From: an uncultured virus (IMG/VR IMGVR_UViG_2061766007_001878)
Lineage: Duplodnaviria; Heunggongvirae; Uroviricota; Caudoviricetes
Reading direction: 5' to 3' (one strand)
Virus record (IMG/VR): IMGVR_UViG_2061766007_001878
DNA: 64,000 bases
Positions 7,331 through 59,199 of the stretch are shown here, piece by piece. The position numbers were made by a program, and so were the translations under genes. The number at the start of each line of letters is the position of its first letter. The first letter of the stretch is position 1. The notes beneath the pieces were generated by a model. That model was not told the origin of the DNA, searched no databases, and saw nothing but the letters and a program-made list of their open reading frames with translations.

Positions 7331-8134
7331 ATGAACAATAATATTAAAATCGCAAAGCAATTGATTGCCCTCGCCAAAGAACTTATCGCTGTTCCGACCG
7401 CTACGTTTAATGATTTTAATCAGTTTAACAATGATTACAAAAATACGCATGGCAAGAATGTTGACAGTTCGATTTGGGATTTGTTCGCGACACAAGCCCA
7501 AGTGGATGCATTCTTGAAGGCGAAGTCTCAGGCTCATCCAAATCTGTCTGAATTCATTGATAAGGGAACATTGGAGAAAATCCTGAAAAAGGGTTATTTC
7601 ACAATTTGTTCCGCTGGCATAAGCTCAGCCGAGTATTCCGCTCTTTTGAAGAAATATACAAATGATGACGGCGTGTTGGACGAACAGGGATTTGAAAAGG
7701 AGAAAAACAGTCTTGTCAAGTCAAGGCTTGATGAATTCTGCAAGTTCCTTGATTCGCTCGATGTCAAGTATTACGAAGTCCTTGGGCAGTTCTATGATGA
7801 GGGGTCGAAGACCGAGCTTGCGGAATTGAGCTATATCGTCGATTTGACTAACATCGGCGAGAACAGCGATGCCGAAGCCAAGCAGATTATGAAGAAGATT
7901 TCCAATTACTGCGGGAACAACATGAACCAGACTGCCGTTATTGAAGGAATCAAGGGATTGGGTGCATATGTGTTCTGCGGTGACAGAAGCCATCTTCCCA
8001 AACGTGGAGAAGGCGACATGGGATATGGTCGTTCGACAGTGAGACATGACCAGAGAAACAGAACGGACTGGTCTGATGACTATGGATTCGGAGACGAGCC
8101 TCCTGCCCAGCCGTCGAAAAAAGATTGGATTTGA
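7331..8134 (+). CDS. Leader-bearing protein; possible SAM-lyase/DUF3293-like fold
   Basis: AGGAG RBS; leader MNNNIKIAKQLIALAKELIA; spaced motifs FTICSA, VLGQF, ELSYIV and NQTAVI. CDS is solid; function is tentative. Confidence 0.5.
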   Translation: MNNNIKIAKQLIALAKELIAVPTATFNDFNQFNNDYKNTHGKNVDSSIWDLFATQAQVDAFLKAKSQAHPNLSEFIDKGTLEKILKKGYFTICSAGISSAEYSALLKKYTNDDGVLDEQGFEKEKNSLVKSRLDEFCKFLDSLDVKYYEVLGQFYDEGSKTELAELSYIVDLTNIGENSDAEAKQIMKKISNYCGNNMNQTAVIEGIKGLGAYVFCGDRSHLPKRGEGDMGYGRSTVRHDQRNRTDWSDDYGFGDEPPAQPSKKDWI

Positions 8135-8147
8135 TTTCAAATTCTAC

Positions 8148-8177
8148 TTGACAAAAAAGAAAAACGGTGCATATTAT
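8148..8177 (+). promoter_or_regulatory. Sigma70-like (early) promoter
   Basis: TTGACA at 8148 and a CATATTAT -10-like element at near-canonical spacing, upstream of ORF 8233. Confidence 0.7.
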
Positions 8178-8232
8178 ATGTAGGTCGATGAAAGTCTCAT
8201 CGATGAAACCGTTCAACAAAGGAGATTGACGT

Positions 8233-8487
8233 ATGGAAAAAGAAAAAGAAAAAATCTACGAAGCGGTGTTTGAAGCACTGGAAAAGAAGCGTGACATTGA
8301 AAAATGCCGAGGCTGTACTTTCTTCAAGGACGAGGGTGACGGAACATTCTTCTGCAAGAATGTCTCTCATTTCTTCGGAAAGCCTTGGTGCCGTGAGTGC
8401 AGGCATTCCTTGAAAGCCGAATGGTTTGAAAAGGCGACCATTGACTTGCAGTACAAAGAGCTTTGCCAGCAATACGAAAAGAAATAG
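8233..8487 (+). CDS. Small Cys-rich hypothetical protein
   Basis: AAGGAG RBS; CRGC...C...CREC. Confidence 0.75.
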   Translation: MEKEKEKIYEAVFEALEKKRDIEKCRGCTFFKDEGDGTFFCKNVSHFFGKPWCRECRHSLKAEWFEKATIDLQYKELCQQYEKK

Positions 8488-8512
8488 CTGATATTTAAAA
8501 AATCTGTTTTTC

Positions 8513-8551
8513 CTTATATCCGACAGTATAATATGTACTGTCGGATTTTTT
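8513..8551 (+). promoter_or_regulatory. Late-promoter motif overlapping a terminator hairpin
   Basis: CTTAT-N8-GTATAAT (8513-8532) overlapped by stem ATCCGACAGTA/TACTGTCGGAT plus T-tract. Confidence 0.65.
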
Positions 8552-8602
8552 GTATCTATGACATTTGAAAACAAATGTTTGAATTTTACAATGGAGAATA
8601 AC

Positions 8603-9079
8603 ATGAACAGGATTGACAGATTGAAATTCGCCGAAGAGCTTGCAAAGATAGCCGAGGAAATGATGGTCGCTGGTCGTCCTAGGATGACAAAGGATGAATT
8701 CGTCCAAAGGGCTATTGAAGTGCATGGAGAAGGCGCATACGATTATTCCAAGGTCGATATGGACAACAGGGATGACAAAGGGCGTGTGTATATTATTTGC
8801 AATAAATGCGGTCAGGGATTCTGGCAACGTCCAGATAAGCACCTTGACGGCAACGGTTGCATGAACTGCTATGTCGAGGAGACAAACGGAGCGGTTCCAG
8901 GTCAACCGCAGGAAGAGACGGTTCCTCCGACCGCGCAAGCTGTGCAACCTGCGAATCCAGCTCCAAAACCTGCTCCTCAGCCAGCACCGCAACCTGCACC
9001 TAAACCTGCTCCGCAGGCGGTTCCGAGTCCAGCACCGAAGCCTCCAGTAGCCAAGCCAGATGAAAGAAGACTGATATGA
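8603..9079 (+). CDS. Leader-bearing zinc-ribbon (DUF723-like) protein with a Pro-rich tail
   Basis: GGAG RBS; leader LKFAEELAKIAEEMMVA; HGEGAYDYSKV...IICNKCG.GFWQRP..HL.G.GC..C; PAPQ/PAPK repeats. Confidence 0.7.
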   Translation: MNRIDRLKFAEELAKIAEEMMVAGRPRMTKDEFVQRAIEVHGEGAYDYSKVDMDNRDDKGRVYIICNKCGQGFWQRPDKHLDGNGCMNCYVEETNGAVPGQPQEETVPPTAQAVQPANPAPKPAPQPAPQPAPKPAPQAVPSPAPKPPVAKPDERRLI

Positions 9080-9606
9080 TTGAGTACAGGCGACATCGGG
9101 GATATAATGTGGATTTCATGCTTGAATGCATTTTTGGAAAAAATGCCGACGAGTTGAAGCTCGCCTTTGCCGAAGACCCGAATACGAATCCGAGCCTTCT
9201 GTCGCTGATGTCGAATGACAGGAACCGTCATGTCAGGGAAATGGTCGCCTTCAATCCAAGCACTCCTTTGGATGTCCTCGACTCGCTTTCGATGGATGAA
9301 TGGGAAGTGGTGAGGCAGATGGTAGCCGAAAACAGAAACACGCCTGTTGTAATTCTTGAACGTTTGTCCGATGATTCCGAATGCTCCGTCAGGGAATCGG
9401 TCGCCATAAACCAGAACACTCCATCGCATGTGCTTGAAAAGCTCGCTGCTGACAGGTACACAATGGTGAAAATTTTCGTGGCGGACAATCCGAACACGTC
9501 GGACGAGGTGGTGAAGGCGATGACGAGAAGCAGTAATGAATACGTGAGAAGGAATGCGTGTACCAGATTGAGGGAAAGAGGAATAAAGTATGAGGAAGAT
9601 AAATAA
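9076..9606 (+). CDS. LRV/HEAT-like repeat protein
   Basis: About five 24-aa repeats of VRxxVAxNxNTPxxVLxxL. Confidence 0.8.
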   Translation: MIEYRRHRGYNVDFMLECIFGKNADELKLAFAEDPNTNPSLLSLMSNDRNRHVREMVAFNPSTPLDVLDSLSMDEWEVVRQMVAENRNTPVVILERLSDDSECSVRESVAINQNTPSHVLEKLAADRYTMVKIFVADNPNTSDEVVKAMTRSSNEYVRRNACTRLRERGIKYEEDK

Positions 9607-9895
9607 GCTGTCTGATGCGTTGAACGAGACGAAGGTTGAGTTTGTTAAACCACTGGGTACGATGCATGCTAAGAACATGGATATGCCCTGCTCGTTGTTG
9701 GAGAACTGCCTGACGGATGAGTTCATCATGTCACTCGAAATGGGCGATGATTGCATGATGGATGATTTCTACGAGGAGTTCGGCATGAAGAGCACATGGT
9801 TGAAAGACTTGAATGCGAAGAATCCTCGTGTGCAGAGCTGGCAGAAGTACAGAAACGGGTTGACGAAGAAAGATTTGAGCGGAATGATTGAATAG
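9590..9895 (+). CDS. Hypothetical protein
   Basis: GAGG RBS; overlaps the previous gene. Confidence 0.65.
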   Translation: MRKINKLSDALNETKVEFVKPLGTMHAKNMDMPCSLLENCLTDEFIMSLEMGDDCMMDDFYEEFGMKSTWLKDLNAKNPRVQSWQKYRNGLTKKDLSGMIE

Positions 9896-9904
9896 GATAT
9901 TGTC

Positions 9905-10438
9905 ATGGAAAAGAAAAACATCATTTTTGCAAAACGCCTTATCCATATGGCGCGAATGCTTCTTGCCGACAATGAGCATCATGGTCATTATTCCATTGAC
10001 AACGGTTCGGACAACAGTCTTGTCGTGTATTTCATTCTCGACGAGAATGCTGTTGAATCCAAGGCATTGGAGAATGCGAACGTCTGCCGTTATGAAATCA
10101 AGAAGAAATTGGAGAATCTCGATGGTTCGTTCGATGTGACCAGCATGGAGAACAATGACCACAAGAGCTTTTGTTTCAGCATTATCCCGAACGATGATGA
10201 AAAGAAAGCGTCTGTCTCTAATTCAAGGATGATGGTCGCCATAGGTGACGAGCCTGACGACGGAGGCGGTCTTGATTTAGGTGGTGGAGATGACAAGATG
10301 CCTGATTTGGGAGGCGGGGATGACAGCCCAGAAAAACCAGAAAAGTCAGAGCCTCCGAAGGACGATGAGACAACGAAGAAAATAAAGGAAATCGTGAAGG
10401 AAGTCTGCAAGAAGCATGGATGGGACGCGGAGTCTTGA
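9905..10438 (+). CDS. Leader-bearing hypothetical protein with a Gly/Asp low-complexity segment
   Basis: Leader MEKKNIIFAKRLIHMARMLLA; DLGGGDD occurs twice. Confidence 0.75.
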   Translation: MEKKNIIFAKRLIHMARMLLADNEHHGHYSIDNGSDNSLVVYFILDENAVESKALENANVCRYEIKKKLENLDGSFDVTSMENNDHKSFCFSIIPNDDEKKASVSNSRMMVAIGDEPDDGGGLDLGGGDDKMPDLGGGDDSPEKPEKSEPPKDDETTKKIKEIVKEVCKKHGWDAES

Positions 10439-10508
10439 TTAATGTTTTTATTTATATTTCACTGTAAAATAGAATAATGTTGAAAATAATTTTCTGGAGA
10501 ATAAAGAT

Positions 10509-11212
10509 ATGAAAAAAGTTGACATGGCGGTAAGAGTGGCGAAGACAGTCGCGATTATGGCNNNNNNNNNNNNNNNNNNNNTTTCATCGACGGGTTCACG
10601 GGCAAGTTGAAGAAGAAGGTGGACGAGTATCTCGCTGGCATCCATGCTGGCGATACGGTTGTCAACGGCGTGCGCGTCCCGTGCATATTCTTCCCTGAAA
10701 CCCACAAGGGCGAATACACCGAGGGAAAGTACGTCGGCAAGTTTGACATTGGTTACAGCAGTGCGTGCGAGGACGACGGCGTGCAGTTCTGCGTCAGCGT
10801 TTCCCTGTCCGCGTGCGAAGGCGAGACGTTCTCTGGTCTGATGGATGACAAGTCCTGCTATACCGTCCATATCAGGAGCTTTTCTGGTGAACGCGCCCTG
10901 CTGAAGCGCACATCCAATGCCGTCATGGTAACGAATATCGGTGAAAGCTCGGTCTTGTCCCTGCTTAATGGCGATGCCGTCATCGATGAATACGGAGTGG
11001 ATGCGATTGGTGAGGATGCCGACAAGCAGAAGGTCGCCAAGGAAAACCATGATTTCATCTTCGACGAGATGGAGAAGACCGCCGATGGCATTAGGAAGAA
11101 GATTTCCGCATGGCTCGACGAGAACAAGGTCATCAGCAAGCTCTGGTTTGATTTCGGCAACATGGTCAACAAGAACGAGAATGTGAAGAAGGGAATCGAA
11201 ATAGCGGAGTAA
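10509..11212 (+). CDS. Leader-bearing hypothetical protein spanning the 10562-10581 gap
   Basis: GGAG RBS and MKKVDMAVRVAKTVAIMA before the gap; ORF 10607..11212 after it; TTTAT-N8-GTAAAAT at 10451-10470. Confidence 0.65.
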
Positions 11213-11224
11213 AGGAGAACAGAT

Positions 11225-11914
11225 ATGAATAAGGAGAAAGTCGAGAAAATCGCGAAATTGCTGGTCGCTGCCCCCAAGCATCCTGATACCGATTGCGGTC
11301 AGGGAATCATCATGGCTGATGAAAACTTGAAGCTCGGAAATATGACGCACTACGGGACTTTTGTGACTGTCAGTGGTCCATATGCAAGCATGGTGAAAAT
11401 CAAGGATTTTCTGAAGGAAAAGAAATTCCAGTATATTCCGTACAAGAGAATCTGGGCGTGCTTCTGGAACCAGTGCAAATGGGATGAAATCGAATCTGGC
11501 ATCAAGAGCATCCTGAATGGAGATGGACAGCAGGGTGAATCCATGAATGATTCTGCTTCTGGTGATTTCAGTGACATCTGGTTGCTTGACGAAGGAGGAC
11601 CTGGTGTTCATTTTGTCAGAAACTGGAATACGTTTAACCAACCGATGTTCATTCCAGAACTGAAAAGTGAAATCGACAGCTTTAAGGCGAAATGCTGTGC
11701 TTTGCTGAATGTCATTGCAAAAGCACTTCCAGGAAGCGTTATCGGGCAACTCCTAGACCATTTTGCAAAAGACGACGCATATGAATGGGAATGGAATGAC
11801 AGATGGATTTACACGGTGACAATTCCAGCCAGTAAAGAGGAAAAGAAAGTCATTGCCGAGATTTGCAAGAAAAGCGGAGTAAAAGTTCCAGGTTTGAATC
11901 AATACGAGAAATAA
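11225..11914 (+). CDS. Leader-bearing hypothetical protein
   Basis: AAGGAG RBS; MNKEKVEKIAKLLVA. Confidence 0.8.
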   Translation: MNKEKVEKIAKLLVAAPKHPDTDCGQGIIMADENLKLGNMTHYGTFVTVSGPYASMVKIKDFLKEKKFQYIPYKRIWACFWNQCKWDEIESGIKSILNGDGQQGESMNDSASGDFSDIWLLDEGGPGVHFVRNWNTFNQPMFIPELKSEIDSFKAKCCALLNVIAKALPGSVIGQLLDHFAKDDAYEWEWNDRWIYTVTIPASKEEKKVIAEICKKSGVKVPGLNQYEK

Positions 11915-12039: not shown

Positions 12040-13020
12040 ATGCATAAGCATAATCTTGATTTTCATGTCAGCGGGATACTGACCAATCCAGAAGAACAGT
12101 GGGACAGAATCAAACGGGCTTCTATGGGGAAGAACCGCGTCGCCTTCCGTAAAATCGACGTGGACTGGAAGAAGTACAACACGAAAGACTACCTTTTTAC
12201 TCATGATACCGCATGCTGTTCCGTCGAGACGGAGGAGAACGGCTACTGGATTACCCCGCCGTGCTGGGAGCTGGTCAACGCCAACGGCAACGCTTGGACA
12301 ACCCCAGTGCTTCTGGCATCGTTCAAGACGTTCATTGGCGGTGATAATTTTGAAGAGCATATTCNNNNNNNNNNGGCGGAGAAGTGCCGTCAGGTCGTCG
12401 ATGACATCTGCGCGAGGTACATGGAAGANNNNNNNNNNCTCGATGCCATCGCCCGTCCAGTCGTCCATCATTCGGAAAAGTACGGCGATGCCCACATTTA
12501 CGTCATCGATTGTCTGGTCGCGACAAATAGAAAGCATACGGCTTTGATTGAACGTATTGAATCTGGAAAGCTCAATACGTTGAGCATGGGTACCATTTGC
12601 AATTATACAACCTGCTCCATTTGTGGCAAGGTCATCGGCGACAACGACCGCAACTGCGAGCACCTCGACAATCATCTTGGTCAACTGGTCACATGTCAGG
12701 ACGGAAAAGAGCGAATCTGTGCAGAATTGTGTGGCGCGGTCGATGAAAACGGAAACTACATCGAAGGGTCGAACTCCTTCATAGAGCTATCGTGGGTAGG
12801 GCATCCTGCGTTTCAGGGAGCCGTAATTAACTCTTTTGTAGAAAATGAAGAAATAAAAACTGCAAGAGAAGAAGAAAAGGAAGAACTTGCTAAACTATTT
12901 GAAAGCAATCTTTTTGAAAGACTTAAAGTGGCTGATACAGATAGTAAAATTGCTTTGAAGATTACTAAGGAAATTGGAAAAGTAGAAAGAATTTCCAGTG
13001 ATATCATGAAAAAGATTTGA
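12040..13020 (+). CDS. Putative prohead (capsid maturation) protease, HK97/assemblin-like, with a Cys/His insertion
   Basis: NANGNAW, FEEH (candidate catalytic His), LSMG (candidate catalytic Ser), CSICG..CEH and FIELSWVGHPAFQGA (the ExSxVxxPA motif). 12375-12428 is a misplaced island. Confidence 0.75.
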   Translation: MHKHNLDFHVSGILTNPEEQWDRIKRASMGKNRVAFRKIDVDWKKYNTKDYLFTHDTACCSVETEENGYWITPPCWELVNANGNAWTTPVLLASFKTFIGGDNFEEHIXXXXAEKCRQVVDDICARYMEXXXXLDAIARPVVHHSEKYGDAHIYVIDCLVATNRKHTALIERIESGKLNTLSMGTICNYTTCSICGKVIGDNDRNCEHLDNHLGQLVTCQDGKERICAELCGAVDENGNYIEGSNSFIELSWVGHPAFQGAVINSFVENEEIKTAREEEKEELAKLFESNLFERLKVADTDSKIALKITKEIGKVERISSDIMKKI

Positions 13021-13078: not shown

Positions 13079-13873
13079 ATGGATAAGAATGTGAAGATTG
13101 CAAAAGAATTGGTAAGATTGGCGAAGTTGCTGGTTGCTGAGCCTCGTGGTGATTACAAGAAACTCAGCAGACCACAGCAACACGAGAGGGAATTGGAGAA
13201 TGATGTTCAAATGGAAGATGCCTTTATCGCCAAGCTGGAAAGCGAATACAAGAGGGTGAAGAATCTTCTAAGCTCTAACGGCTTTTCGGAAGATGACGCC
13301 ACAGGTGATTTTAAATCAGATTTGGAAGAAGCCAAAAACGCCATTGAAAAGGGCGAACCTGTGAACGGCGAAGAAAAGAAGAATCTTGAATACGTTTTAA
13401 GGAATTTTGGCTTGATTGACGAAGCCAAGATGAAGACTTTTAAAGAAGCATTTGAACTTAAAAAGAAAGTCGATAAATTATATGAAGAGGGGAAGAAAGG
13501 TCATGAATCGTATTATGATGACTTTTTCAGTTTGTATGAAATGGATTCTTACCAAAATTATGAGTTTTCAATTTATTGCACCGACTGTGGATTAAAAGAG
13601 TTAAGGCGTTGTGAATATGAGCTTACCAATGCAATTAATCATTGGAAACAATGCCCGAATATCGCGAACTGGATTATCTCCATATACAACAGTGGCGAAG
13701 AGGGACGGAAAGACGCGATTAACGCTGGATTCCATCAGGAATGGCTTCAAGATTCGAAACTGAACTATCTGAAAGACCATGCGTATGAATTCAAGTACCG
13801 CCTTGGAAACATGGGCTATAAATACAACGAGAACTACACATACAGCACCGATTCGACGGAAAATCTTAAATAA
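13079..13873 (+). CDS. Leader-bearing hypothetical protein
   Basis: AAGGAG RBS; MDKNVKIAKELVRLAKLLVA. Confidence 0.8.
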   Translation: MDKNVKIAKELVRLAKLLVAEPRGDYKKLSRPQQHERELENDVQMEDAFIAKLESEYKRVKNLLSSNGFSEDDATGDFKSDLEEAKNAIEKGEPVNGEEKKNLEYVLRNFGLIDEAKMKTFKEAFELKKKVDKLYEEGKKGHESYYDDFFSLYEMDSYQNYEFSIYCTDCGLKELRRCEYELTNAINHWKQCPNIANWIISIYNSGEEGRKDAINAGFHQEWLQDSKLNYLKDHAYEFKYRLGNMGYKYNENYTYSTDSTENLK

Positions 13874-18829: not shown

Positions 18830-19453
18830 ATGATGAGCGAAGAGAAGATAGCCAAGATGGTCGCGAGAATCGCGGAGGACAATACAAAAGCCACACGGGA
18901 TAACGTAAGATACGAAAGGTGGTCGGGTGAAATCGACTATAATGGAACAAAAGGCGTGGTGAAGTGCGCCACGTTTGCGTTGCGTGATGGAAATGTCGAA
19001 TGGGAGGAAGGAACTTGGCTGTCTGGTACTTGGAATGGAGGCGTATGGAAGTCTGGAATCTGGGAGAATGGGACTTGGAACCGAGGTGTCTGGAAGTATG
19101 GCATCTGGAATGACGGCGAATGGCTGAAAGGCACTTGGGAGCTTGGAAGCTGGTATGATGGAACTTGGCATAACGGCATCTGGGAATATGGATTCTGGAA
19201 CGACGGAAAGTGGCTTTATGGCGAATGGAAGTCAGGGGCTTGGAACGGAGGAAGTTGGAAAGGCGGAATCCATCGCAAGGGCGAGTGGTATGGTGGAAGA
19301 TTCGACTGGGACAAGGACAAATCCAAAATATCCAGATGGGAGGATGGAATCTGGTTCGACGGCATTTGGAAGGATGGGGAATGGCTGAAAGGTCAGGATG
19401 AGGACAGGCGGAATCGCACGAATTCGCCGAACAATTGGGAAGAAGGCGAATGA
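18830..19453 (+). CDS. GxWxx pentapeptide (Trp-rich) repeat protein 1, leader-bearing
   Basis: More than 20 GxWxx units; N-terminal EEKIAKMVARIA; C-terminal SPNNW. Confidence 0.85.
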   Translation: MMSEEKIAKMVARIAEDNTKATRDNVRYERWSGEIDYNGTKGVVKCATFALRDGNVEWEEGTWLSGTWNGGVWKSGIWENGTWNRGVWKYGIWNDGEWLKGTWELGSWYDGTWHNGIWEYGFWNDGKWLYGEWKSGAWNGGSWKGGIHRKGEWYGGRFDWDKDKSKISRWEDGIWFDGIWKDGEWLKGQDEDRRNRTNSPNNWEEGE

Positions 19454-23222: not shown

Positions 23223-23252
23223 GTGTAAAATGTTTTTAACGGAGAATTCTCA

Positions 23253-24416
23253 ATGAACGATGATTTTACAAAGATAGCATCCAAGGTGTTTCTTGCGTTT
23301 ACATGCAGGAAGTACGTGATGGAAGATGGATTCGACTACGACGGAGCTGACAGAGGACTTGTGTTGTTCAACTACAACTACTATCCTATCATCTGGGCTT
23401 ATCCGAAGGAAGAACGTATCTATATCATCTTCACTTACAAGGCAGATGATGCCTTCAATGAATTTTTGTCTTTGAGACGTTCCAATTCTCCTCAACTAGG
23501 CGACATAGGCAAGGAGATAAAGGACTGGATGGACGAGCATCCACGCGGGGTGATTTGCAAGAATTTCAGAATCATGCTTTGGAATTCCATCCATAAGGAG
23601 AAAATGACCAAGTTCAAGAATGCGGATTTCCTTATCAGCACGCATACAACGTTGTCAGTCGAAGAAGCGCAGAAATTCTTCACGGAGAAATATGACATCA
23701 GCATGACGGATTTCTACAGGGCATTTGGTGGTGAAGTCTCCGAGGACAGGAAGTTTTCCTGCGAGGGTATGAATTTCGAGGTGAATGATTCGTCTTTAAC
23801 AAAAGAGACGGTTGAAGCCAAGATGCGTGAAGTCAAATCCAAGTTGCCTGACAGTCTTGCGAGCAAACTCATCTACGGGAAAGTCGAGTTGAAGAGTAAA
23901 TTCGCGGACAATGCCATTGCGGATTATCATGCAACGAATGATTTGATACGAATTGACGCGGGCGATGAATTTGTCAGTTCCATGATTCACGAACTTGGTC
24001 ACAGATGGCATTACAAGTTCTGCACAAGGTTGCAACAGAGGAAGATTGAGAAATTATACAAGTTGTGCAAGGACGATAAAAGCGATGCCATCGGCGAACT
24101 GGAATACGGGGATGTGGTGGAATTGTATGGAAAATATAAATATTGCATTGTTGATTCAAATGATTTCCACTATCGTTGCTATAGTATTGACGAGGAAAAT
24201 CCTCCGACAAGGACAATTCCAAAGAATTTTTTTCATACGAAGACTGTTACGTCCGTGAACGGAAAACCTGTTGACCATAAATATATGTTGCCTCGTCCGT
24301 ATGCAGGGAAGAACATACGTGAATTCGTGGCGGTATGCTTTGAGCATTTGTACTATGGAAAAAGCATAAGCAGTAAACTTGCTGAAGAAATGAAGGAGAT
24401 ATTTGAAAATGGATAA
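23253..24416 (+). CDS. Leader-bearing zincin-like metallopeptidase
   Basis: MIHELGHRWH (HExxH) and downstream YAGKNIREFVA (third-ligand Glu motif); N-terminal DFTKIASKVFLA. Confidence 0.65.
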   Translation: MNDDFTKIASKVFLAFTCRKYVMEDGFDYDGADRGLVLFNYNYYPIIWAYPKEERIYIIFTYKADDAFNEFLSLRRSNSPQLGDIGKEIKDWMDEHPRGVICKNFRIMLWNSIHKEKMTKFKNADFLISTHTTLSVEEAQKFFTEKYDISMTDFYRAFGGEVSEDRKFSCEGMNFEVNDSSLTKETVEAKMREVKSKLPDSLASKLIYGKVELKSKFADNAIADYHATNDLIRIDAGDEFVSSMIHELGHRWHYKFCTRLQQRKIEKLYKLCKDDKSDAIGELEYGDVVELYGKYKYCIVDSNDFHYRCYSIDEENPPTRTIPKNFFHTKTVTSVNGKPVDHKYMLPRPYAGKNIREFVAVCFEHLYYGKSISSKLAEEMKEIFENG

Positions 24417-25143
24417 AATCGAAAAAGTTGCGAAGAAGGTGATTGCCCTCGACCCAGAGCTTGAAGGGCATCACTACAATATGGACAGTGAAAATCCAGC
24501 GGTGTACGTCGGCACATATGGAAAGTACGCTGGTGGTTCCATCGACGGGATGTGGGTGGACTTGACTACATTTGACAGTTATGATGAATTCTATGAATGG
24601 TGCTCGAAGGTATTGCACAAGGATGAAGCTGAACCAGAACTGATGTTTCAGGACTATGAGAATTTCCCAGAAACGTATTACGGCGAATCTGGTCTGAAAC
24701 CAGAGCTTTGGGATTACATAAAAGCTCTTGACGAGTGTGACAAGGATGTAATAGATGCCATTCTCGACGAAGGTTATACGCTTGAAGACGCGAAGAATGC
24801 AATCGTTTATCCAGACTGCGATGACATGTCGGATGTCGCCTATGCGATGGTCGATGAATGCGGTGAGGATGCTTTTTCCAAAAACGCATGGGAGACGGCG
24901 TTTGACTATGAGAGATTCGGTCGTGAATACCAGTGGGATTTGGATGCGGACGACCGTGAGCAGTATGATGGAATGTCAGACCTTGAAGTTGGCGAGCAGG
25001 TTGTCGAGGAATTCGGCGGTCTTGAGGAACTAAGTGATGAGACAATCAAGGAATATGCCAATTTCAAGACTCTTGGCGACTGGCTTGAATCTGGTGGCGA
25101 ATGGGTCAAATACGATGGCGGTTATGCCGAGATTATACAATAG
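24409..25143 (+). CDS. ardA: ArdA antirestriction protein with an N-terminal leader
   Basis: PAVYVGTYGKYAGGSIDGMWVDL, EPELMFQDYENFP and FDYERFGRE; highly acidic; AAGGAG RBS; leader MDKIEKVAKKVIA. Confidence 0.9.
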   Translation: MDKIEKVAKKVIALDPELEGHHYNMDSENPAVYVGTYGKYAGGSIDGMWVDLTTFDSYDEFYEWCSKVLHKDEAEPELMFQDYENFPETYYGESGLKPELWDYIKALDECDKDVIDAILDEGYTLEDAKNAIVYPDCDDMSDVAYAMVDECGEDAFSKNAWETAFDYERFGREYQWDLDADDREQYDGMSDLEVGEQVVEEFGGLEELSDETIKEYANFKTLGDWLESGGEWVKYDGGYAEIIQ

Positions 25144-25153
25144 GGAATGACAT

Positions 25154-25441
25154 ATGAACAGCAGGATGCGAATCGCATTGGAACTTGTGAGGATTGCTGC
25201 CGACCTTTCCCCAGATGAAATGCTGGAGGAAATCGACGGCATGACAATTCCGCAGTTGATGAATACGATACGCAAGAATACAAGCAACTACCAGTCTTTG
25301 TCGCCGACATTGAAAATGGAGAAGTTCAAGAACAAAGTGGATTTGTCGAAACCAGTGAAACGAATGACCATCAAGGAGCTGTTCAGATTGTTGGCGAAGA
25401 TAGGAATCAAAACTGATGCTGAAGAAGCCGAGGAGCAATAA
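25154..25441 (+). CDS. Small leader-bearing protein
   Basis: MNSRMRIALELVRIAADL; internal repeat MTIPQL / MTIKEL. Confidence 0.75.
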   Translation: MNSRMRIALELVRIAADLSPDEMLEEIDGMTIPQLMNTIRKNTSNYQSLSPTLKMEKFKNKVDLSKPVKRMTIKELFRLLAKIGIKTDAEEAEEQ

Positions 25442-25442
25442 T

Positions 25443-26210
25443 ATGGACAAGATTGCAAGAATATCAATGAGAATCGCTGGATTTGAGCTGGATGGACGCT
25501 TGTTCACCCAGCGCACGGCGAGGAATGCTGCGGATTTTCTTTCGAAGACTCTTTCCAAGTACACGCATGATGTGTACAACAACGAGGACAAGAAATACAA
25601 GGAACTCTACAATGCGAAGAATGAATTGTTCCAGTATGGCATGAATCTCGAATCCAAGGAAGAACATACGGACGTGTCCGACAATGGCTCGTGGAAGGAC
25701 TTGTATCATTTCTCGTTCAGAAACTTTGAAGGAAAGGAATTCACGATATGCGTGGAATTCAATGTCATGCTGGCTGGTACGACGACCGACCATGAACTGA
25801 GCTATGATTTCACGGTTCAGGCTTGGGACGAAAACAAGGAGACGCAGTACGATGCTCCTGCAATCAATCATGAAATCGCGTCGATGTCACGACCAAAGGC
25901 GTGCAAGGCAATTCAGAGGATGGTTGACAAATACACGCATGACGTGTACGACAACAAGGATTATCGGTTTACTGTGTTGCAGAGGGCGCATCAAATCGTT
26001 GATTCCATAGGCATGGAAAGTCTTGATTGCGACAGGAAGGATTTTCGCAATGATTACGGAGATGTGACTGGATACACGGAGGTCGATACATACAGATATT
26101 TGGATGCCAATTTGAAGGAAGTAAAACTCAGTGTGCGATGGAGCGTATATTACGCTGGTTCAATCGGAGACATCAAGAACAGGTATGATTTCACGGTGGA
26201 TGTTTATTAA
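25443..26210 (+). CDS. Leader-bearing protein with a duplicated domain
   Basis: MDKIARISMRIA; KYTHDVY and YDFTV each occur twice. Confidence 0.8.
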   Translation: MDKIARISMRIAGFELDGRLFTQRTARNAADFLSKTLSKYTHDVYNNEDKKYKELYNAKNELFQYGMNLESKEEHTDVSDNGSWKDLYHFSFRNFEGKEFTICVEFNVMLAGTTTDHELSYDFTVQAWDENKETQYDAPAINHEIASMSRPKACKAIQRMVDKYTHDVYDNKDYRFTVLQRAHQIVDSIGMESLDCDRKDFRNDYGDVTGYTEVDTYRYLDANLKEVKLSVRWSVYYAGSIGDIKNRYDFTVDVY

Positions 26211-27118
26211 TGAACAGCTCAAGACACAAAATAGCAGAGGAATTGGTCAGGATTGCCAAGGAGCTTGTCGCATGGCGCGACAAATCCACACAGCCTGTGA
26301 GACGGGAGAAGTCACGTCTTGACAGACAGGTGGACGAAGGCATTGGCGAGTATTTTGACGACGGCGATGATGAAGAGCTTGACTTGTCCCAGTTCATGCG
26401 AATCAGGAATGTCTATGACGAGGACGAAGCCGAGACGATACAATATCAATATGAGCAGGCGATGAGCCGTGACCATGACTATCTGGGAAATGTCTATGGA
26501 TGGTCGCTCAATCCGACGACTCAGATAATCGAATCCGAAGACGGCGATTATGTGGTCGGGTTCAGATGCGGTAACGCATTCATCCTGAGCCATTTCGCCC
26601 CTAGGACTCTTTCCAGCGGGATGAGGTTTGTCTCCGCATTGGCGAATTGGGAGCAGAGTGTCATCGCAGCGGTGCTACCAAAGCAGGCTGGGATGCTTGA
26701 GCGTCTTGGTTTCAAGAATGTCGGGACGGTACCGCAGTGGTTCAACGGCGAAACGGTCATGAAGACTGTGATGGTCAACGGGGCGACGACGGAGGCGGTT
26801 CTCAATTATGTCCTTTCACAAGGGACTGGAAAATCCATCGTCGTGATATATCTCGGCACGCCAGAGATGTATTCGGCGGAGGAAATCGCCAATGAAATCA
26901 AGAATGACAGCAAGATGCAGGATGAATTCCTCAACTTCGTGCAGAACTACAAGGACTACCGTTCGTTTGTGCCGATGGTCAGGGTGTTGCATGTGTTGGA
27001 TTATTTGACTAAAACCATGAAGGGGACGGATTTTCTTAAAAATTGCGTCGATGCGATGGACAAGTTATTTTCATCGAATTTCCAATGGAAGAAATTCAAG
27101 AGCAGGCATTTGCTTTAA
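26210..27118 (+). CDS. Leader-bearing protein with a possible GNAT-like domain
   Basis: HKIAEELVRIAKELVA; AGMLERLGFKNVG resembles the C-terminal GNAT motif. Function is tentative. Confidence 0.55.
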   Translation: MNSSRHKIAEELVRIAKELVAWRDKSTQPVRREKSRLDRQVDEGIGEYFDDGDDEELDLSQFMRIRNVYDEDEAETIQYQYEQAMSRDHDYLGNVYGWSLNPTTQIIESEDGDYVVGFRCGNAFILSHFAPRTLSSGMRFVSALANWEQSVIAAVLPKQAGMLERLGFKNVGTVPQWFNGETVMKTVMVNGATTEAVLNYVLSQGTGKSIVVIYLGTPEMYSAEEIANEIKNDSKMQDEFLNFVQNYKDYRSFVPMVRVLHVLDYLTKTMKGTDFLKNCVDAMDKLFSSNFQWKKFKSRHLL

Positions 27119-27747: not shown

Positions 27748-28113
27748 ATGGAAAATGAAAGACTGACTAGAATTGCAAAGAGCATCGTCGGAAGAAGCCA
27801 AATGGTGAAGACATGTGTTGTCCACGACGAAGGGCTTTGCGATTTGCACATAGAGGAATCCGTGTTCGCTCAGGATGAATACACGTATCAGAATCTGATG
27901 GACGATATTGAAGGATTTTTGTATGATGTGGACAGGGAGCTTGGATATTTGACTGCGCTTGATAAGGAAGTGGTCACGTGTGACAAAAACAAAATACATG
28001 TCTGTACTGGAAGCGATGCAGACCTCATGTGTTTTTCGTATGATTGCTCTATCTATATGAGCGATGAAGGCATGGAAAGAATACGTAACAGCGAATGGAG
28101 AATCAAGGAGTAA
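27748..28113 (+). CDS. Leader-bearing hypothetical protein
   Basis: MENERLTRIAKSIVG. Confidence 0.75.
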   Translation: MENERLTRIAKSIVGRSQMVKTCVVHDEGLCDLHIEESVFAQDEYTYQNLMDDIEGFLYDVDRELGYLTALDKEVVTCDKNKIHVCTGSDADLMCFSYDCSIYMSDEGMERIRNSEWRIKE

Positions 28114-28119: not shown

Positions 28120-28461
28120 ATGGATAAAGAGAAAATTGAGAAAATCGCAAAGACATTGGTGGCTGACAATGGTCTTATTGGAGTTGTACAAGATGTCGGT
28201 TATCAGAAGGGGTATCTTCTGTATTGTGAACAGTATCTTGGAAAGTCCGAACAGGTTGACGGTATGGCTGTCGCCATTGAAGATGAATTCATCCAGAAAT
28301 ACAATGCGTATTCATTCCCAGAAGGGGCATTGTTCAAGTGCCTTGTGAAACAGAGAGGTGAAGTCAGCATTGGATTTGAATTCCAGGAAGTGACTTCTGA
28401 TGAAATTGACGCTCTTGTATTGAAACACCATATTACGCTCAGATGCGACGACAGACCATAA
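28120..28461 (+). CDS. Leader-bearing hypothetical protein
   Basis: AAGGAG RBS; MDKEKIEKIAKTLVA. Confidence 0.8.
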   Translation: MDKEKIEKIAKTLVADNGLIGVVQDVGYQKGYLLYCEQYLGKSEQVDGMAVAIEDEFIQKYNAYSFPEGALFKCLVKQRGEVSIGFEFQEVTSDEIDALVLKHHITLRCDDRP

Positions 28462-29183: not shown

Positions 29184-29188
29184 GAGAC

Positions 29189-40741: not shown

Positions 40742-40768
40742 TTGAAAAAATAAAAAGGAGTATGAACG

Positions 40769-41329: not shown

Positions 41330-41467
41330 TAAATTCAGTTAGTAAATTTGAAGATTGAAGGAGTACGATTGCCATGCATGTGGTAGTTGTTCTCCTTTTG
41401 TTTTATAATGTATAATAATTTGAGTTTAATTTTGTTAAAATTGTTGTTATACAAGGAGTAAATTGAA

Positions 41468-41794
41468 ATGAATAAAAACATCAAAGTTGCAAAGAGTCTT
41501 ATCGCGTTGGCGAAGGAACTTGTTGGTTCATATGGGGATACTGCTTCTCACAAAGGGGAATACAAGAATTTTACAGGTACAGTCATTTGGAAGAACACGG
41601 CTGGTGATGTCAAGGATGCCACGTTTTATTTGAATAACGACGGAATTGTTTTTGTTGATGGAATATGGGAAGACGGGAATTTTGGCGGAAATCATTTTGA
41701 CCAATGGGAAAACGGAACGTGGAAAAAGGGTAAGTGGACAAGCGGGTACGACAAGGACGGAAAGCAACGCACCGACAGTCCAGACAAATGGTAG
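41468..41794 (+). CDS. GxWxx repeat protein 2, leader-bearing
   Basis: MNKNIKVAKSLIALAKELVG; short GxW array; ends SPDKW. Confidence 0.85.
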   Translation: MNKNIKVAKSLIALAKELVGSYGDTASHKGEYKNFTGTVIWKNTAGDVKDATFYLNNDGIVFVDGIWEDGNFGGNHFDQWENGTWKKGKWTSGYDKDGKQRTDSPDKW

Positions 41795-41842
41795 GAATTT
41801 GTGATTGGTTTGAAATTATAATATTTGCTTTGGAGTTTTTAT

Positions 41843-51809: not shown

Positions 51810-52520
51810 ATGGCGAAAAAATTAGATGAATTGCTGAAAGGCAAGAAGGCAAGTGCTCCTGTCAATGCGAAGATGGCGAAAATCGCCGAGGCGTGCGCAA
51901 TGCTTCAGAAGAAATTTGGTAAGGAAAGTGTCAATTTCCTTGGCAATAAGAAAGCGGAGCCATTGCCTCGTTTTTCAAGCGGTAGCATTGCGCTTGACAA
52001 GATTCTCGGCGGTGGCTATCCAGAAGGTCGTATGATTGAAATCTTTGGACCAGCCTCCTCTGGTAAGACGACTATCTGTTATCATGCTCTTGCATCCATT
52101 CAGAAGAAGTACCCTGACGACTGGTGCGGATTCGTGGATTCGGAGCAGTCTTTCGACCCGATTTATGCGGAATCCATCGGCGTGAACGTGGCTGAACTCG
52201 TCACGGCACAGCCTGACACTGGTACGGATGCCTTCGGCATGGTTCAGGGCATGATTGAGTCTGGAGCGAAGGCGATTGTCATCGATTCCGTTGCCGCCAT
52301 GATGCCAAAGGAAGAGGCAGAAGAGGAAGACTACGGGCATAATTCCATCGGTGCGCAAGCCCGAATGATGTCCAAAGGTCTTCGTAAGCTCACCGCAATC
52401 GCTGGTAAGCACAAATGCACCTTGATATTTACTAATCAAATTCGTAATAAGATAGGTGTTATGTACGGTTCGCCCGAATGTGTGACGCTTGATACGATGG
52501 TTGAAGTTGAATTTGAATAA
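51810..52520 (+). CDS. recA: RecA N-terminal part (223 aa) fused to a 13-aa N-intein
   Basis: SSGSIALD, GGGYPEGR, GPASSGKTT, IDSVAA, QARMMSKGLRKL and NQIRNKIGVMYGSPE, then CVTLDTMVEVEFE* (52479-52520). Confidence 0.95.
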   Translation: MAKKLDELLKGKKASAPVNAKMAKIAEACAMLQKKFGKESVNFLGNKKAEPLPRFSSGSIALDKILGGGYPEGRMIEIFGPASSGKTTICYHALASIQKKYPDDWCGFVDSEQSFDPIYAESIGVNVAELVTAQPDTGTDAFGMVQGMIESGAKAIVIDSVAAMMPKEEAEEEDYGHNSIGAQARMMSKGLRKLTAIAGKHKCTLIFTNQIRNKIGVMYGSPECVTLDTMVEVEFE

Positions 52521-52584: not shown

Positions 52585-53937
52585 ATGATTTTTTACTTTT
52601 ATAAAATAACAAATCAAATCAACGGAAAGTATTACTTTGGTGTACATAGTACAAACAATATAAATGATGGCTACATGGGAAGTGGAGTCGCATTGAAACG
52701 AGCATATAAAAAGTATGGGATTGGAAATTTTATCAAGGAAATTTTGTATTATTTTGACAATGCAGAAGAAATGTATGCGTTTGAAGAACAATATGTGAAT
52801 GATGAACTTGTAAATGATTCTCAATGCTATAACATGGTAATTGGTGGTAGAAGTAAAAATACATCGATGCATTTGGGAAAATTGGCAAGTATTGCTTCTT
52901 CAAGAGAAGATGTAATTGCCAAAAGAAAAGAAAGCATTTATTTGTATTGGCATACAGGTGATGTAGAGGAGAAAAGGAGAAAGCAATCCGAAGGGAATAA
53001 ACGATATTGGACTACTGGTGATGTTGAAGCAAAAAAGCAACATCACTCAGAAGTTCAAAAAAGAAGTTATCAAGAACATCCTGAACGAAGAGAACGGATA
53101 CTTGCAAGATTAAAAGAAAGATATTCTGGTGAAGAAGGTGTGAAAACTCGTCGCAAGATAAGTGAATCACTTCGGAATAGTGAAGCTCATAAAGAAGCAA
53201 TAATAAAATTAAAGGAAACTGCAAAAAGAGGAAAAGAAACAGCGGAATTCATTGTTCATTGGAAATCATTGTATGACCAAGATTCAGAAGAAATCTGTGA
53301 ATTACTGAAACATTCCAATTTGCCAGAACGTTTTATTGTTGAAAAGCTTTATGGAAAGAAAGTTCATTTAGACCGATTGCTTTCTTATTATCATGATGTC
53401 GGATTGTTGCCAGATGCCATTGATTCTGAAATCAAAACAAGATTTTTGAGATTGGATGATACAAATGGAAAAGGTCATAAAGACGGTACAAGTTTGAAAA
53501 CTTTTTATACGAATGAATTGAAATACGATGTTTCTTTTTATTATGATGATTTTTTCAATCAATTTGAAATAATAAAGAAATTTATGCTTGATGATTCTAT
53601 ATCAGATAGTATGATTTTCAATAATGATGAGAACAGTAAACTCGTTCCAAATTTCAAACAAGTTGTTGAATATTTTCAGGATTTAGGAATTGTTTCCAAT
53701 GTGCATGTCATATTAATACGAACACCAAAGACGGTACAAGGCAAGCATTTTACAGTGCCTGCCAAAAAAACCAAGTTTGATATTGATTACAAAGGTGTAA
53801 ACAAAAAAATTCTAATTGACAAGGAGATGAATGAGTATGGAATTGATGACAATGGAAAAGCTTTTCGAAAAGGCAGGTTTGAACTGGAAATTAATGGAAC
53901 AAAACGTTCCATACGATGTCAGTGGCAAAAACATTAA
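52585..53937 (+). CDS. GIY-YIG homing endonuclease (Seg-like)
   Basis: YFYKITNQINGKYYFG, YMGSG, KKYG..NF.KEIL, conserved E and CYN; helical repeats YWxTGDVE; AT-rich relative to recA. Confidence 0.88.
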   Translation: MIFYFYKITNQINGKYYFGVHSTNNINDGYMGSGVALKRAYKKYGIGNFIKEILYYFDNAEEMYAFEEQYVNDELVNDSQCYNMVIGGRSKNTSMHLGKLASIASSREDVIAKRKESIYLYWHTGDVEEKRRKQSEGNKRYWTTGDVEAKKQHHSEVQKRSYQEHPERRERILARLKERYSGEEGVKTRRKISESLRNSEAHKEAIIKLKETAKRGKETAEFIVHWKSLYDQDSEEICELLKHSNLPERFIVEKLYGKKVHLDRLLSYYHDVGLLPDAIDSEIKTRFLRLDDTNGKGHKDGTSLKTFYTNELKYDVSFYYDDFFNQFEIIKKFMLDDSISDSMIFNNDENSKLVPNFKQVVEYFQDLGIVSNVHVILIRTPKTVQGKHFTVPAKKTKFDIDYKGVNKKILIDKEMNEYGIDDNGKAFRKGRFELEINGTKRSIRCQWQKH

Positions 53938-54760
53938 GATTAAAAGTTTCAATCATCAGACAAATCAGAATGAAATGAAACGAATTTTGAACCTTGTTTA
54001 TAAAGGTGATTATCCTATTTATAATCTTGTTGATAAACAGGGAGATATATTGCTGAAATGCTCTGGTGCTCATAGAATTTGGGATAATGCTACGGCACAA
54101 TATTATCATGTCCAAGATATTGAAGGCGGTACGGCTTTGACAAAGGCTGGTGAAAATGTTGAATTTTTTGTAAAACAAACAAAAGAAACTCATCCGATTG
54201 TCGATATGGAAGTGGAAGGAAACTCCAATTATTTTACAAACGGAATTCTTTCGCATAACACTACAACTGGTGGTAAGGCATTGGAATACTACGCTTCTGT
54301 CAGAATCCGCGTTTCCCAGTGCGGGAAGGTGGAAGACACGGTTGACGGCGAGAAGGTCATCACGGCTATTCAGACGCGCCTGACCACGAGCAAGAACAAG
54401 ACGTTTGCGCCGTTCAAGACTTGCGAAATCGTCATTCGCTTCGGTGAAGGCATCGACAACGACGCTGGCATCCTCGACCTCGCATTCCAATACGGAATCA
54501 TCACGAAGGGCGGTGGTGGCAACTACACCATCAACGGCGAGAAAATCAGAGGTCTTCCTGCATTGAAGGAATACCTTGAAAACAATCCAGAGCTGTACGA
54601 GGAAATCAAGCAGAAGACCCGTGACGCGATGGAGAACGACAAGAAGGAGAACGTCGTGACGGAAGAGGAGGCTATCGATGCCGACTCCATGACGGACGAC
54701 GAAATCGCCGAAGCTGCCGAGGCAAGCGACAACGACGATGCCGAGACTGGCGAAGTCTAA
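53831..54760 (+). CDS. recA: C-intein (143 aa) fused to the RecA C-terminal part (166 aa)
   Basis: AAGGAG RBS; block B CSGAHRIW; blocks F/G VDMEVEGNSNYFTNGILSHN ending at 54259; then TTTGGKALEYYASVR and KNKTFAPF. Confidence 0.95.
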   Translation: MSMELMTMEKLFEKAGLNWKLMEQNVPYDVSGKNIKIKSFNHQTNQNEMKRILNLVYKGDYPIYNLVDKQGDILLKCSGAHRIWDNATAQYYHVQDIEGGTALTKAGENVEFFVKQTKETHPIVDMEVEGNSNYFTNGILSHNTTTGGKALEYYASVRIRVSQCGKVEDTVDGEKVITAIQTRLTTSKNKTFAPFKTCEIVIRFGEGIDNDAGILDLAFQYGIITKGGGGNYTINGEKIRGLPALKEYLENNPELYEEIKQKTRDAMENDKKENVVTEEEAIDADSMTDDEIAEAAEASDNDDAETGEV

Positions 54761-57887: not shown

Positions 57888-57933
57888 TTTTTATAGATAT
57901 AAGTAAATAACATATACAAGAAATCAATTTCTC

Positions 57934-57971
57934 TTTATGTCCGACGGTATAATAAGCTGTCGGATTTTTTT
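57934..57971 (+). promoter_or_regulatory. Late-promoter motif overlapping a terminator hairpin
   Basis: TTTAT-N8-GTATAAT (57934-57953) within TCCGACGG/CTGTCGGA plus T-tract; close copy of 8513-8551. Confidence 0.65.
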
Positions 57972-58005
57972 GTGTATTTAATCTAAAAACAAGGAGAAAT
58001 TGAAA

Positions 58006-58443
58006 ATGAACAAAAACGTGAAAATCGCGAAGGAATTGGTGAAATTGGCGAAAAGTTTGGTGGCTGATGATGTCCGTGTTGCTGACAAAATTGGAGAAGA
58101 ATATAAAGATTTTACTGGATGGATTAAATATAATGGTGAAAAAGTGTATGTATGTCGTGCTACATTTAAACTTGAATGGTATAAAGAATGGACACGTATA
58201 ATTTGGGAAGATGGTGAATGGTGTGATGGAGTTTGGTGTGATGGCATATGGAAAAATGGCACATGGGATGATGGAAGATGGATTGATGGCATATGGAAAA
58301 ATGGTACATGGAGAAATGGCACATGGGAAGACGGAACATGGGAAGACGGCATATGGCATAGTGGTACGTGGATAGGTGGAACCTGGAAACATGGTAAAAA
58401 TCAATATGGTGAAGAATATTCTAATTCTCCAAAAAATTGGTGA
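58006..58443 (+). CDS. GxWxx repeat protein 3, leader-bearing
   Basis: MNKNVKIAKELVKLAKSLVA; about 13 GxWxx units; ends SPKNW. Confidence 0.85.
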   Translation: MNKNVKIAKELVKLAKSLVADDVRVADKIGEEYKDFTGWIKYNGEKVYVCRATFKLEWYKEWTRIIWEDGEWCDGVWCDGIWKNGTWDDGRWIDGIWKNGTWRNGTWEDGTWEDGIWHSGTWIGGTWKHGKNQYGEEYSNSPKNW

Positions 58444-58480
58444 AAATCTAATATATACAATAAGATATTGAAAAACATAC

Positions 58481-58509
58481 AAAAGCCACGGTTTTCACCG
58501 TGGCTTTTG
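58481..58509. terminator. Bidirectional terminator
   Basis: AAAAGCCACGG-loop-CCGTGGCTTTT between convergent genes. Confidence 0.85.
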
Positions 58510-58521
58510 ATTTATATGGTC

Positions 58522-59199
58522 TTATTTGTCTATTATTTTCCATTTGTTAGGCGAAGCGTCCTTCGGATGCCATCCCTTCTTCTTGTCGTATCCGCCGTTC
58601 CACTGACCGCCGTTCCAAGTGCCTTCGTTCCACTGACCGCTGTTCCATACGACGTTGTTGAATTCGCCGTACCAGTTCAATCCGTCGTTCCAGATGCCGT
58701 TGTGCCAAGTCCCCTGCCAGAATGTCCCGTTGTCCCAGACCCCGTTCTGCCAGATGCCTTTCTCCCACCATCCGTTCAGGTGTATCCCGTTTTCCCATAC
58801 TCCGTTCTTCCATGTCCCGTCCTGCCAGACGGATGGGATTTTATCGTCAGCTTGTTTCCAGATGCCGTAATGCCATGTGCCGTACTTCCATGTACCGCTC
58901 ATCCACAGTCCGTTCTCCCATTCTCCGACCTGCCATTCTCCAGCTTTCCACAAGCCGTCCTTCCAAAGACCGTAAGCCCAGACTCCGTTTTCCCAAGTGC
59001 CGTCCCTCCAGACGATTCGACCGTTTTTCAGCTCGAATATCGCGTTCGTCACGATTCCCTTCGTGCCGTTGTAATCGATGGTTCCAGCCCATCCGTGGTC
59101 TTTCTTCCCGTATTTTCCGTCCTTGTTGGCGACTTCTCCAGCCAGAAGCATCTTAGCGGTCGCCAGCATTTCCTTCGCTATCCTGATGTTTTCGCTCAT
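58522..59199 (-). CDS. GxWxx repeat protein 4, leader-bearing
   Basis: MSENIRIAKEMLATAKMLLA; long GxWxx array; SPNKW near the end; GGAG RBS. Confidence 0.85.
   Translation of the reverse strand: MSENIRIAKEMLATAKMLLAGEVANKDGKYGKKDHGWAGTIDYNGTKGIVTNAIFELKNGRIVWRDGTWENGVWAYGLWKDGLWKAGEWQVGEWENGLWMSGTWKYGTWHYGIWKQADDKIPSVWQDGTWKNGVWENGIHLNGWWEKGIWQNGVWDNGTFWQGTWHNGIWNDGLNWYGEFNNVVWNSGQWNEGTWNGGQWNGGYDKKKGWHPKDASPNKWKIIDK

Follow-up and report, generated by a model that had tools for sequence, protein, structure and literature searches.

A conserved helical tag at the ends of unrelated proteins of jumbo phages: a candidate address for the head interior

The window analysed here is a 64,000-nucleotide stretch of DNA from an uncultured virus of the Caudoviricetes (IMG/VR record IMGVR_UViG_2061766007_001878), in which 874 bases are masked as N. 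Between positions 7,331 and 59,199 it contains a series of genes whose proteins start with the same short amphipathic peptide, here called the tag. The tag exists, is under selection at the level of the peptide, is modular, and is confined to protein ends. It is a candidate signal for the loading of diverse proteins into the phage head.

The window is part of a jumbo phage genome. Besides the tagged genes it encodes a topoisomerase II A subunit, a PIN-PhoH protein, a Dda-like helicase, and a gp32-like single-strand-binding protein, as well as a DNA methylase, the anti-restriction protein ArdA, and a RecA/UvsX protein whose gene is split by that of a GIY-YIG endonuclease. A tail-tube-like protein and two giant open reading frames represent the tail, and the head module lies outside the window. 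No close relative was found among GenBank phages, including in a search with the tail region of the window, and the proteins encoded at 13079 and 39545 had no matches in IMG/VR. Relatives were reached through homologs of one tagged protein, which led to three IMG/VR contigs:

G001: 255 kb, terminal repeats
G002: 329 kb, terminal repeats, CheckV 100%
G003: 43 kb fragment

The window and G002 are syntenic in blocks, at 93-112, 139-162, and 225-228 kb of G002. The capsid protein of the clade is of the HK97 type and 286 residues long. It has 858 relatives at E ≤ 1e-5, some of them encoded on contigs as long as 656 kb; its named relatives are those of Tunturiibacter phage Tunturi_5 (52% identity) and Bacillus phage G (38% identity). 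Gene calls were made with our own heuristic script, which gave 80 protein entries (19,932 residues) in the window and 356 predicted proteins in G002. The tagged genes of the window, together with the protease gene that lies among them, are as follows:

7331..8134, plus strand: tagged, long form, tag 7331-7390 (MNNNIKIAKQLIALAKELIA); 267-residue body with no family assigned
8603..9079, plus strand: tagged, long acidic form, tag 8603-8671; body matches endonuclease/HNH-type PHROGs; the G002 ortholog is also tagged
9905..10438, plus strand: tagged, long form, tag 9905-9967; recognised from its start, the two-heptad pattern, and the profile
10509..11212, plus strand: tagged, tag 10509-10561; 20 masked N interrupt the gene, and its body resumes in another frame at 10607-11212; the G002 ortholog (146552-147283) is a single open reading frame with the tag
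11225..11914, plus strand: tagged, short one-heptad form EKIAKLLVA; pattern and profile
12040..13020, plus strand: untagged homolog of prohead (capsid maturation) proteases within the tagged cluster; phrog_18299, E 1.4e-8
13079..13873, plus strand: tagged, long form, tag 13079-13138; orthologs P0040 and P0041 retain the tag
18830..19453, plus strand: tagged, short form, tryptophan-repeat (Trp-repeat) paralog; G002 ortholog 158386 retains the tag
23253..24416, plus strand: weakest candidate, TKIASKVFLA; matches neither pattern nor profile
24409..25143, plus strand: ArdA anti-restriction protein (Pfam ArdA), short tag in the 31 residues before the domain
25154..25441, plus strand: tagged, long form, tag 25154-25207; G002 ortholog 94178 retains the tag
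25443..26210, plus strand: weak short form DKIARISMRIA; start and pattern
26210..27118, plus strand: tagged, long form, tag 26210-26272; start, pattern, and profile
27748..28113, plus strand: tagged, short form TRIAKSIVG; G002 ortholog 95108 retains the tag
28120..28461, plus strand: tagged, short form EKIAKTLVA; start and profile
41468..41794, plus strand: tagged, long form, short Trp-repeat paralog, directly upstream of the giant tail-module open reading frames
58006..58443, plus strand: tagged, long form, Trp-repeat paralog; start and profile
58522..59199, minus strand: tagged, long form, Trp-repeat protein, tag 59140-59199; model with helix 2-19 ahead of a beta-rich domain

Form of the tag and its place at protein ends

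All 17 positions at which the initial annotation of the window had placed a common leader hold an ATG start codon followed by the reported peptide, with a GGAG-type ribosome site upstream in most cases. The leader itself is borne out at 16 of the 17 starts by a match to one of the leader patterns in residues 1-15. The peptide at 23253 alone matches neither of the two patterns, and it is, with that at 25443, the weakest member of the set. The long form of the tag consists of two heptads, K-I-A-K-E-L-V / R-L-A-K-x-L-V-A, and the short form of one; the consensus is M-N-x-N-[IV]-K-I-A-K-E-L-V-R-[LI]-A-K-x-L-V-A. The one-heptad pattern [KR][IVLF]A[KRSEL]..[IVLMA] has 19 starts in 15 proteins among the 1,200 N-terminal positions of the window proteins (first 15 residues of each), and two matches in the 18,732 positions elsewhere in these proteins. 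The two-heptad pattern occurs at ten N-termini, gaining 9905, and at no inner position.

The patterns were composed after the sequences had been seen, and a profile of the long forms served as an independent check. When the six-frame translation of the window was searched with it, only the training sequences scored above 7 bits. Among 79 window proteins, the top four non-training matches, with 3.0-4.9 bits, were the N-terminal short forms at 28120, 11225, 27748, and 18830, and no inner match reached 2 bits. The motif and profile scan that had been proposed with the initial annotation places the enrichment of the tag at N-termini.

Two C-termini of window proteins are leader-like and lack a profile score. 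That of 5114-7264 (…KIAKKIMLADEISWRIAVDLT) is one of the two inner matches to the loose pattern, and that of 29189-29584 (…RLASIAKKIAMDCN) was spotted by eye only.

The tag forms an amphipathic helix of one or two heptads in which alanines recur at set places of the heptad. It has a hydrophobic moment of 0.36-0.64 and a mean hydrophobicity of 0.05-0.32. Six of eight long forms carry a net charge of +2 or +3, as against −2 at 8603 and 0 at 26210. An uninterrupted hydrophobic core is absent and a charged residue occurs every three to four positions, in agreement with the earlier statement that the peptide is not a Sec signal. Terminal amphipathic helices also target proteins to membranes, as in MinD and FtsA, and the terminal position, hydrophobic moment, and prevailing positive charge of the tag would suit a helix that brings phage proteins to the cell membrane. 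The acidic and neutral versions do not fit such a function, and the acidic form is kept in the G002 ortholog. The small fixed alanines and the lack of aromatic residues are more in keeping with packing against protein than with insertion into lipid, and membrane targeting does not readily connect with ArdA or with the head-module genes described below. A membrane-targeting function of the helix is quite improbable.

The tag is conserved as a peptide and not as DNA, because 136 of the 235 pairs of codons for the same residue in eight leaders (58%) differ synonymously. A DNA repeat or promoter-linked similarity was rejected on this count. The upstream regions of several tagged genes are alike, and four of the tagged proteins are paralogous, which could point to a similarity without function that arose from a DNA repeat (a promoter, ribosome site, or recombination site), recent gene duplication, or chance. 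The different codons, the C-terminal copies, the unrelated bodies of the proteins, and the extreme positional enrichment reduce the probability of this explanation, as judged from sequences, to next to nothing.

After removal of the first 24 residues, the only window proteins that resemble each other are the four Trp-repeat paralogs (18830, 41468, 58006, and 58522) and the marginal pair 7331/26210 (E 0.003). The assertion that similarity ends with the leader is therefore correct in that the bodies are otherwise unalike beyond the Trp-repeat paralogs, and needs amendment for the marginal pair. No annotated replication, recombination, methylase, or tail gene of the window is tagged, as had been said for replication and tail genes.

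The six-frame translations of the three related contigs contain ten profile matches in G001, 13 in G002, and one in G003. All 24 are located at a protein end, 17 directly after the start codon and seven directly before the stop codon, and none is internal, so that the enrichment found by the profile in the window extends to its relatives. Among the predicted proteins of G002, matches above 5 bits are N-terminal in ten cases, C-terminal in four, and internal in none. A looser pattern has 19 matches in 5,340 N-terminal positions of G002 as against 39 in 81,308 inner positions, which makes it approximately sevenfold denser at N-termini. The description of the tag as a portable N-terminal leader holds as far as portability on unrelated proteins is concerned; the restriction to N-termini does not, since C-terminal copies exist. 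An 83-residue protein found in G002 (197256-197507) and in G001 has the helix at both ends, and it could be a bridge or adaptor.

Six ortholog pairs of the window and G002 retain the tag, and in the ArdA pair the G002 member has no clear tag. Unrelated tagged bodies number 13 in the window and nine in metagenomes. The latter were found with a degenerate DNA pattern for KIAKELVRxAK, which matched 15 metagenome loci. In 12 of these, which represent nine distinct proteins, an ATG with a ribosome site upstream stands 2-5 residues before the match; the remaining three are chance matches because they are internal to long unrelated open reading frames. The nine metagenome proteins resemble proteins of the window and G002 essentially over the tag alone, and protein P0042 is likewise tagged. 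The exact string MNKN[VI]KIAK is rare, with one IMG/VR match, in G001, and a search with residues 1-40 of 13079 returned three proteins only.

The Trp-repeat proteins have a tryptophan every five residues (GxWxx). In the structure model of one of them the tag is a separate helix of low confidence (residues 2-19) ahead of a confidently predicted beta-rich, solenoid-like domain. A comparison of the model with the PDB gave no match at E ≤ 0.001, the best being beta-helix acyltransferases at E 0.13. Extra modules can follow the tag in homologs of these proteins, and distant homologs have other N-terminal domains where the tag would stand. In homologs P0001 and P0007 a second or sole copy is internal, directly before the Trp domain; therefore, some fusions bury the tag.

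Head module, protease, promoters, and cargo

In the head module of G002 a terminase-like gene (23251-26382) is followed by the portal gene (28449-31859), several further genes, and the gene for the major head protein from 39633 onward. Three of the four C-terminally tagged G002 proteins are encoded between the portal and capsid genes, at 31874-32092, directly after the portal gene, at 35436-36329, and at 36349-36663. The fourth is the doubly tagged 83-residue protein. The N-terminally tagged gene 20868 lies directly upstream of the terminase-like gene. In G001 the matching C-terminal copies are on the same strand as the capsid gene and 3.5-8 kb away from it.

The C-terminal copies end in …ISGE, …KKASD, …MRRD, and …VGDGE. 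Degrons are known at either protein end, and the cargo of the tag consists mostly of small proteins without an assigned function, so the helix might be recognised by a protease, unfoldase, or chaperone and thereby set the lifetime or folding of the protein, as a degron or adaptor signal does. The variable endings (…ISGE, …KKASD, and …MRRD) bear no likeness to known degron endings, and the position in the head module would be left unexplained, which makes a stability tag highly improbable.

An acidic, scaffold-like protein of 225 residues is encoded upstream of the capsid gene of G002 (37430-38107), and it starts with an acidic, tag-like amphipathic stretch, KFASEDILAIEELAEQLA. This acidic start could pair with the basic tags.

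The major capsid gene is interrupted in both relatives (G001 L045; G002 39633-41866), and intact versions of 286 residues are common (P0193). The insert in G002 is approximately 1.4 kb long and contains an open reading frame of 389 codons, and that of G001, approximately 350 nucleotides long, has no open reading frame and is intron-like.

In both the window and G002 the gene for the prohead protease is flanked by tagged genes. Those of the window are at 7331-11914, before the protease gene (12040-13020), and at 13079, after it; in G002, 143897, 144533, and 146552 lie next to the protease gene at 147375. The window protein matches the head maturation protease family phrog_18299, as listed above. 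The model of a homolog with 43% identity (predicted local distance difference test score, pLDDT, 79) has T4 gp21 (5jbl_A) as its best match among 48,161 chains, with a Z score of 9.3 and a root-mean-square deviation of 2.7 over 128 residues. The next folds are the proteases of varicella-zoster virus (Z 8.5) and human cytomegalovirus (Z 6.6), and the Foldseek matches to herpesvirus protease are weak. PDB sequence and profile searches and Pfam gave no matches to the protease, and its identity comes from PHROGs and the fold comparison only. Candidate catalytic histidine and serine residues (H117 and S177 of P0050) are invariant in 20 protease homologs; the window protein is masked in two stretches. 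The C-terminal helices of the protease itself look loosely tag-like by eye and have no profile score.

The G002 homolog of the protease (147375-149498) is 707 residues long, with an insert of approximately 400 residues at a point where the window protein is continuous. In many homologs of 450-1500 residues the match is broken into two to four stretches, which suggests frequent inteins or other insertions.

Two promoter types were distinguished in G002. A presumably early type, with a TTGCAA −35 element and GTATAGTA, precedes 30 genes, all on the minus strand at 218-312 kb and mostly in a run of small genes at 293-312 kb. The frequency of the tag on early genes had been proposed as a check of the head-targeting idea; none of the 15 tagged G002 genes is behind this promoter. 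The second type, GTATAATA, precedes 36 genes, including five tagged ones, giant virion-like open reading frames, tail-module genes, and two head-module genes. In the window GTATAAT occurs within 90 nucleotides upstream of eight of the 17 tagged genes.

Upstream of 8603 and 58006 a GC-rich hairpin precedes a T run and has the GTATAAT box in its loop, which makes promoter and terminator-like elements overlap. At several other tagged genes a terminator-like hairpin directly precedes the promoter-like box, an arrangement that resembles stand-alone transcription units.

One identified cargo protein is ArdA (24409-25143; Pfam PF07275, 81.2 bits against a cutoff of 27, E 1.6e-22, residues 32-177). 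Searches of the cargo with Pfam, PHROGs, and NCBIfam otherwise returned only an endonuclease-like stretch, LRV/HEAT repeats, DUF2442, and a weak, below-cutoff match to S-adenosylmethionine lyase (G002 143897). Most of the cargo proteins, which are mainly small, belong to no family, and a protein atlas look-up of 13079 gave nothing usable.

LRV/HEAT-type repeat proteins often bind helices. Tagged examples are G002 199808, L005, and P0042, such proteins being present in G001 as well as in G002, and an untagged one is encoded amid the tagged cluster of the window (9118-9606). These proteins favour the alternative that the helix serves docking or oligomerisation on a hub other than the capsid. Tagged proteins would then join one another by helix-helix packing, or would join an adaptor in the infected cell, which might be one of the repeat proteins. 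The heptad periodicity and fixed alanines, typical of helix-helix packing, and the bridge-like doubly tagged protein of G001 and G002 are also in its favour. Such a hub would leave unexplained both the C-terminal copies on three genes between portal and capsid protein and the tagged genes next to the protease gene in two genomes, and co-assembly with a scaffold core would amount to head targeting anyway. A hub outside the capsid is thus an unlikely function of the tag.

Head targeting and known systems

Of the explanations considered, the best supported is a tag that would target diverse proteins into the phage head for delivery to the host, a reading derived from sequences and gene order to which we give even odds. 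During prohead assembly the tag helix would pack against a component of the head, which may be the inner face or the N-terminal arm of the capsid protein or the scaffold core. A passenger fused to the helix would be enclosed in the head and would later exit with the DNA. The C-terminally tagged proteins encoded between the portal and capsid genes would occupy the same docking site, and a possible role of the gp21-like protease, whose gene lies in the tagged cluster, is to trim the tag. We infer that the helix binds part of the head, that its passengers are packaged and ejected, and that the tag is cleaved. The points in favour of head targeting, all of them indirect, are the C-terminal copies next to portal and capsid genes, the tagged genes flanking the protease gene, the lack of early-type promoters, and the ArdA cargo.

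Several points weigh against head targeting. The short tag on ArdA is not conserved, because the G002 ortholog has no clear tag. No Glu cleavage site of the T4 or phiKZ type is conserved, because a variety of residues (E, D, G, A, V, W, L, F, S, or R) can come next after the tag, and an inspection of the window leaders by eye found no Glu-type site there; a different type of site may nevertheless be cleaved. The virion role of the three C-terminally tagged G002 proteins is suggested by gene position alone. A weak tag candidate (G002 235081) is situated among replication genes, only five of the 15 tagged G002 genes have the GTATAATA promoter, and the timing of the promoter classes in infection is presumed. 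The tag profile has no matches in phage G, Tunturi_5, or the 485 kb uncultured phage LR745208, which have the same capsid protein family, and the gene calls are heuristic.

A wider proposal is tentative and leans towards doubt: the phage-G-related jumbo clade may address proteins to the interior of the head by one two-heptad helix, a general code that works at either protein end and is shared with or borrowed from head-assembly proteins, each phage ejecting approximately 15 host-takeover or anti-defence proteins. If this were true, any gene that gained approximately 17 codons would become that of an ejected protein, the arsenal of the phage, ArdA included, would be changeable, and phages would have in the tag their own natural equivalent of the way in which encapsulins load cargo.

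Peptides that target proteins to the capsid have precedents, and so do shared scaffold helices. The capsid targeting sequence of phage T4 is described as an N-terminal peptide of 10-20 residues that leads internal proteins to the core and that gp21 cleaves off (PMC5694885), and T4 Ip2 and Ip3 are described as injected anti-restriction proteins (PMC12373910). Like the targeting sequence of the T4 proteins IPI-III and Alt, the tag is a short N-terminal peptide common to unrelated small proteins; a prohead protease with the gp21 fold is encoded, and an anti-restriction protein is in the tagged set. Unlike the T4 sequence, the tag is a well-conserved, recognisable two-heptad helix, has C-terminal copies too, and is borne by approximately 15 proteins per genome. 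No L/I-x-E type prohead-protease site ends it, and its packaging and cleavage are putative.

The scaffold protein of phage 80alpha and CpmB of SaPI1 share a C-terminal amphipathic helix-and-hook that binds the N-terminal arm of the capsid protein (PMC5644958). The tag is likewise a terminal amphipathic helix of at least 11 residues common to different proteins (helix 2-19 in the model), and three of its G002 copies are on genes between portal and capsid protein, although most copies are elsewhere. By contrast, the tag has no RIIK-type hook, most of its copies are N-terminal on proteins other than scaffolds, and its binding to the capsid is putative. The C-terminal domain of the P22 scaffold has reportedly been used to load foreign cargo.

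Encapsulins load their cargo by means of short peptides at protein ends, which direct diverse proteins into a shell with the HK97 fold. Terminal peptide, diverse cargo, and HK97-fold shell would be common to this system and to the tag, and the sequences are not known to be related. Unlike the cellular nanocompartment of encapsulins, the shell here is a phage capsid that packages DNA. The anti-restriction proteins DarA, DarB, and Hdf of phage P1 are said to be packaged in the head and delivered with the DNA, and the likeness to the tag system is in concept only, as anti-restriction proteins carried in the head; we know of no leader common to the Dar proteins.

A search for the motif strings in a literature library, supplements excluded, found them in no paper, and a topic search found only T4, giant-phage propeptide, and engineered P22 cases. 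A conserved two-heptad tag at either end of approximately 15 unrelated proteins per genome in a jumbo clade related to phage G appears to be undescribed. To our knowledge, the choice of enclosed and injected proteins in large phages is known in detail only for T4. Targeting signals in other giant phages are long and ill-defined (PMC5694885). A short tag that can be recognised would let the ejected proteome of uncultured jumbo phages be read from their genomes. It would also flag candidate anti-defence proteins among genes without an assigned function, and it would offer a compact handle for the loading of foreign proteins into large capsids.

Other features of the window

The RecA/UvsX-like gene of the window is in two pieces (51810-52520 and 53837-54760) with the GIY-YIG homing endonuclease gene (52585-53937) between them, and its counterpart in G002 is one gene for a protein of 382 residues. 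The two giant open reading frames of the window (41825-50528; 1220 and 1750 residues) both match one 3046-residue G002 protein, which is encoded downstream of a tail-tube-like gene. They may be a single gene, because a masked N run (45369-45461) is positioned at their junction. Small cysteine-rich paralogs that end in CP[YF]Y.EH or CP.E.EHK occur in at least six copies in the window (61881-63999, 34918-35701 on the minus strand, and 8233-8487).

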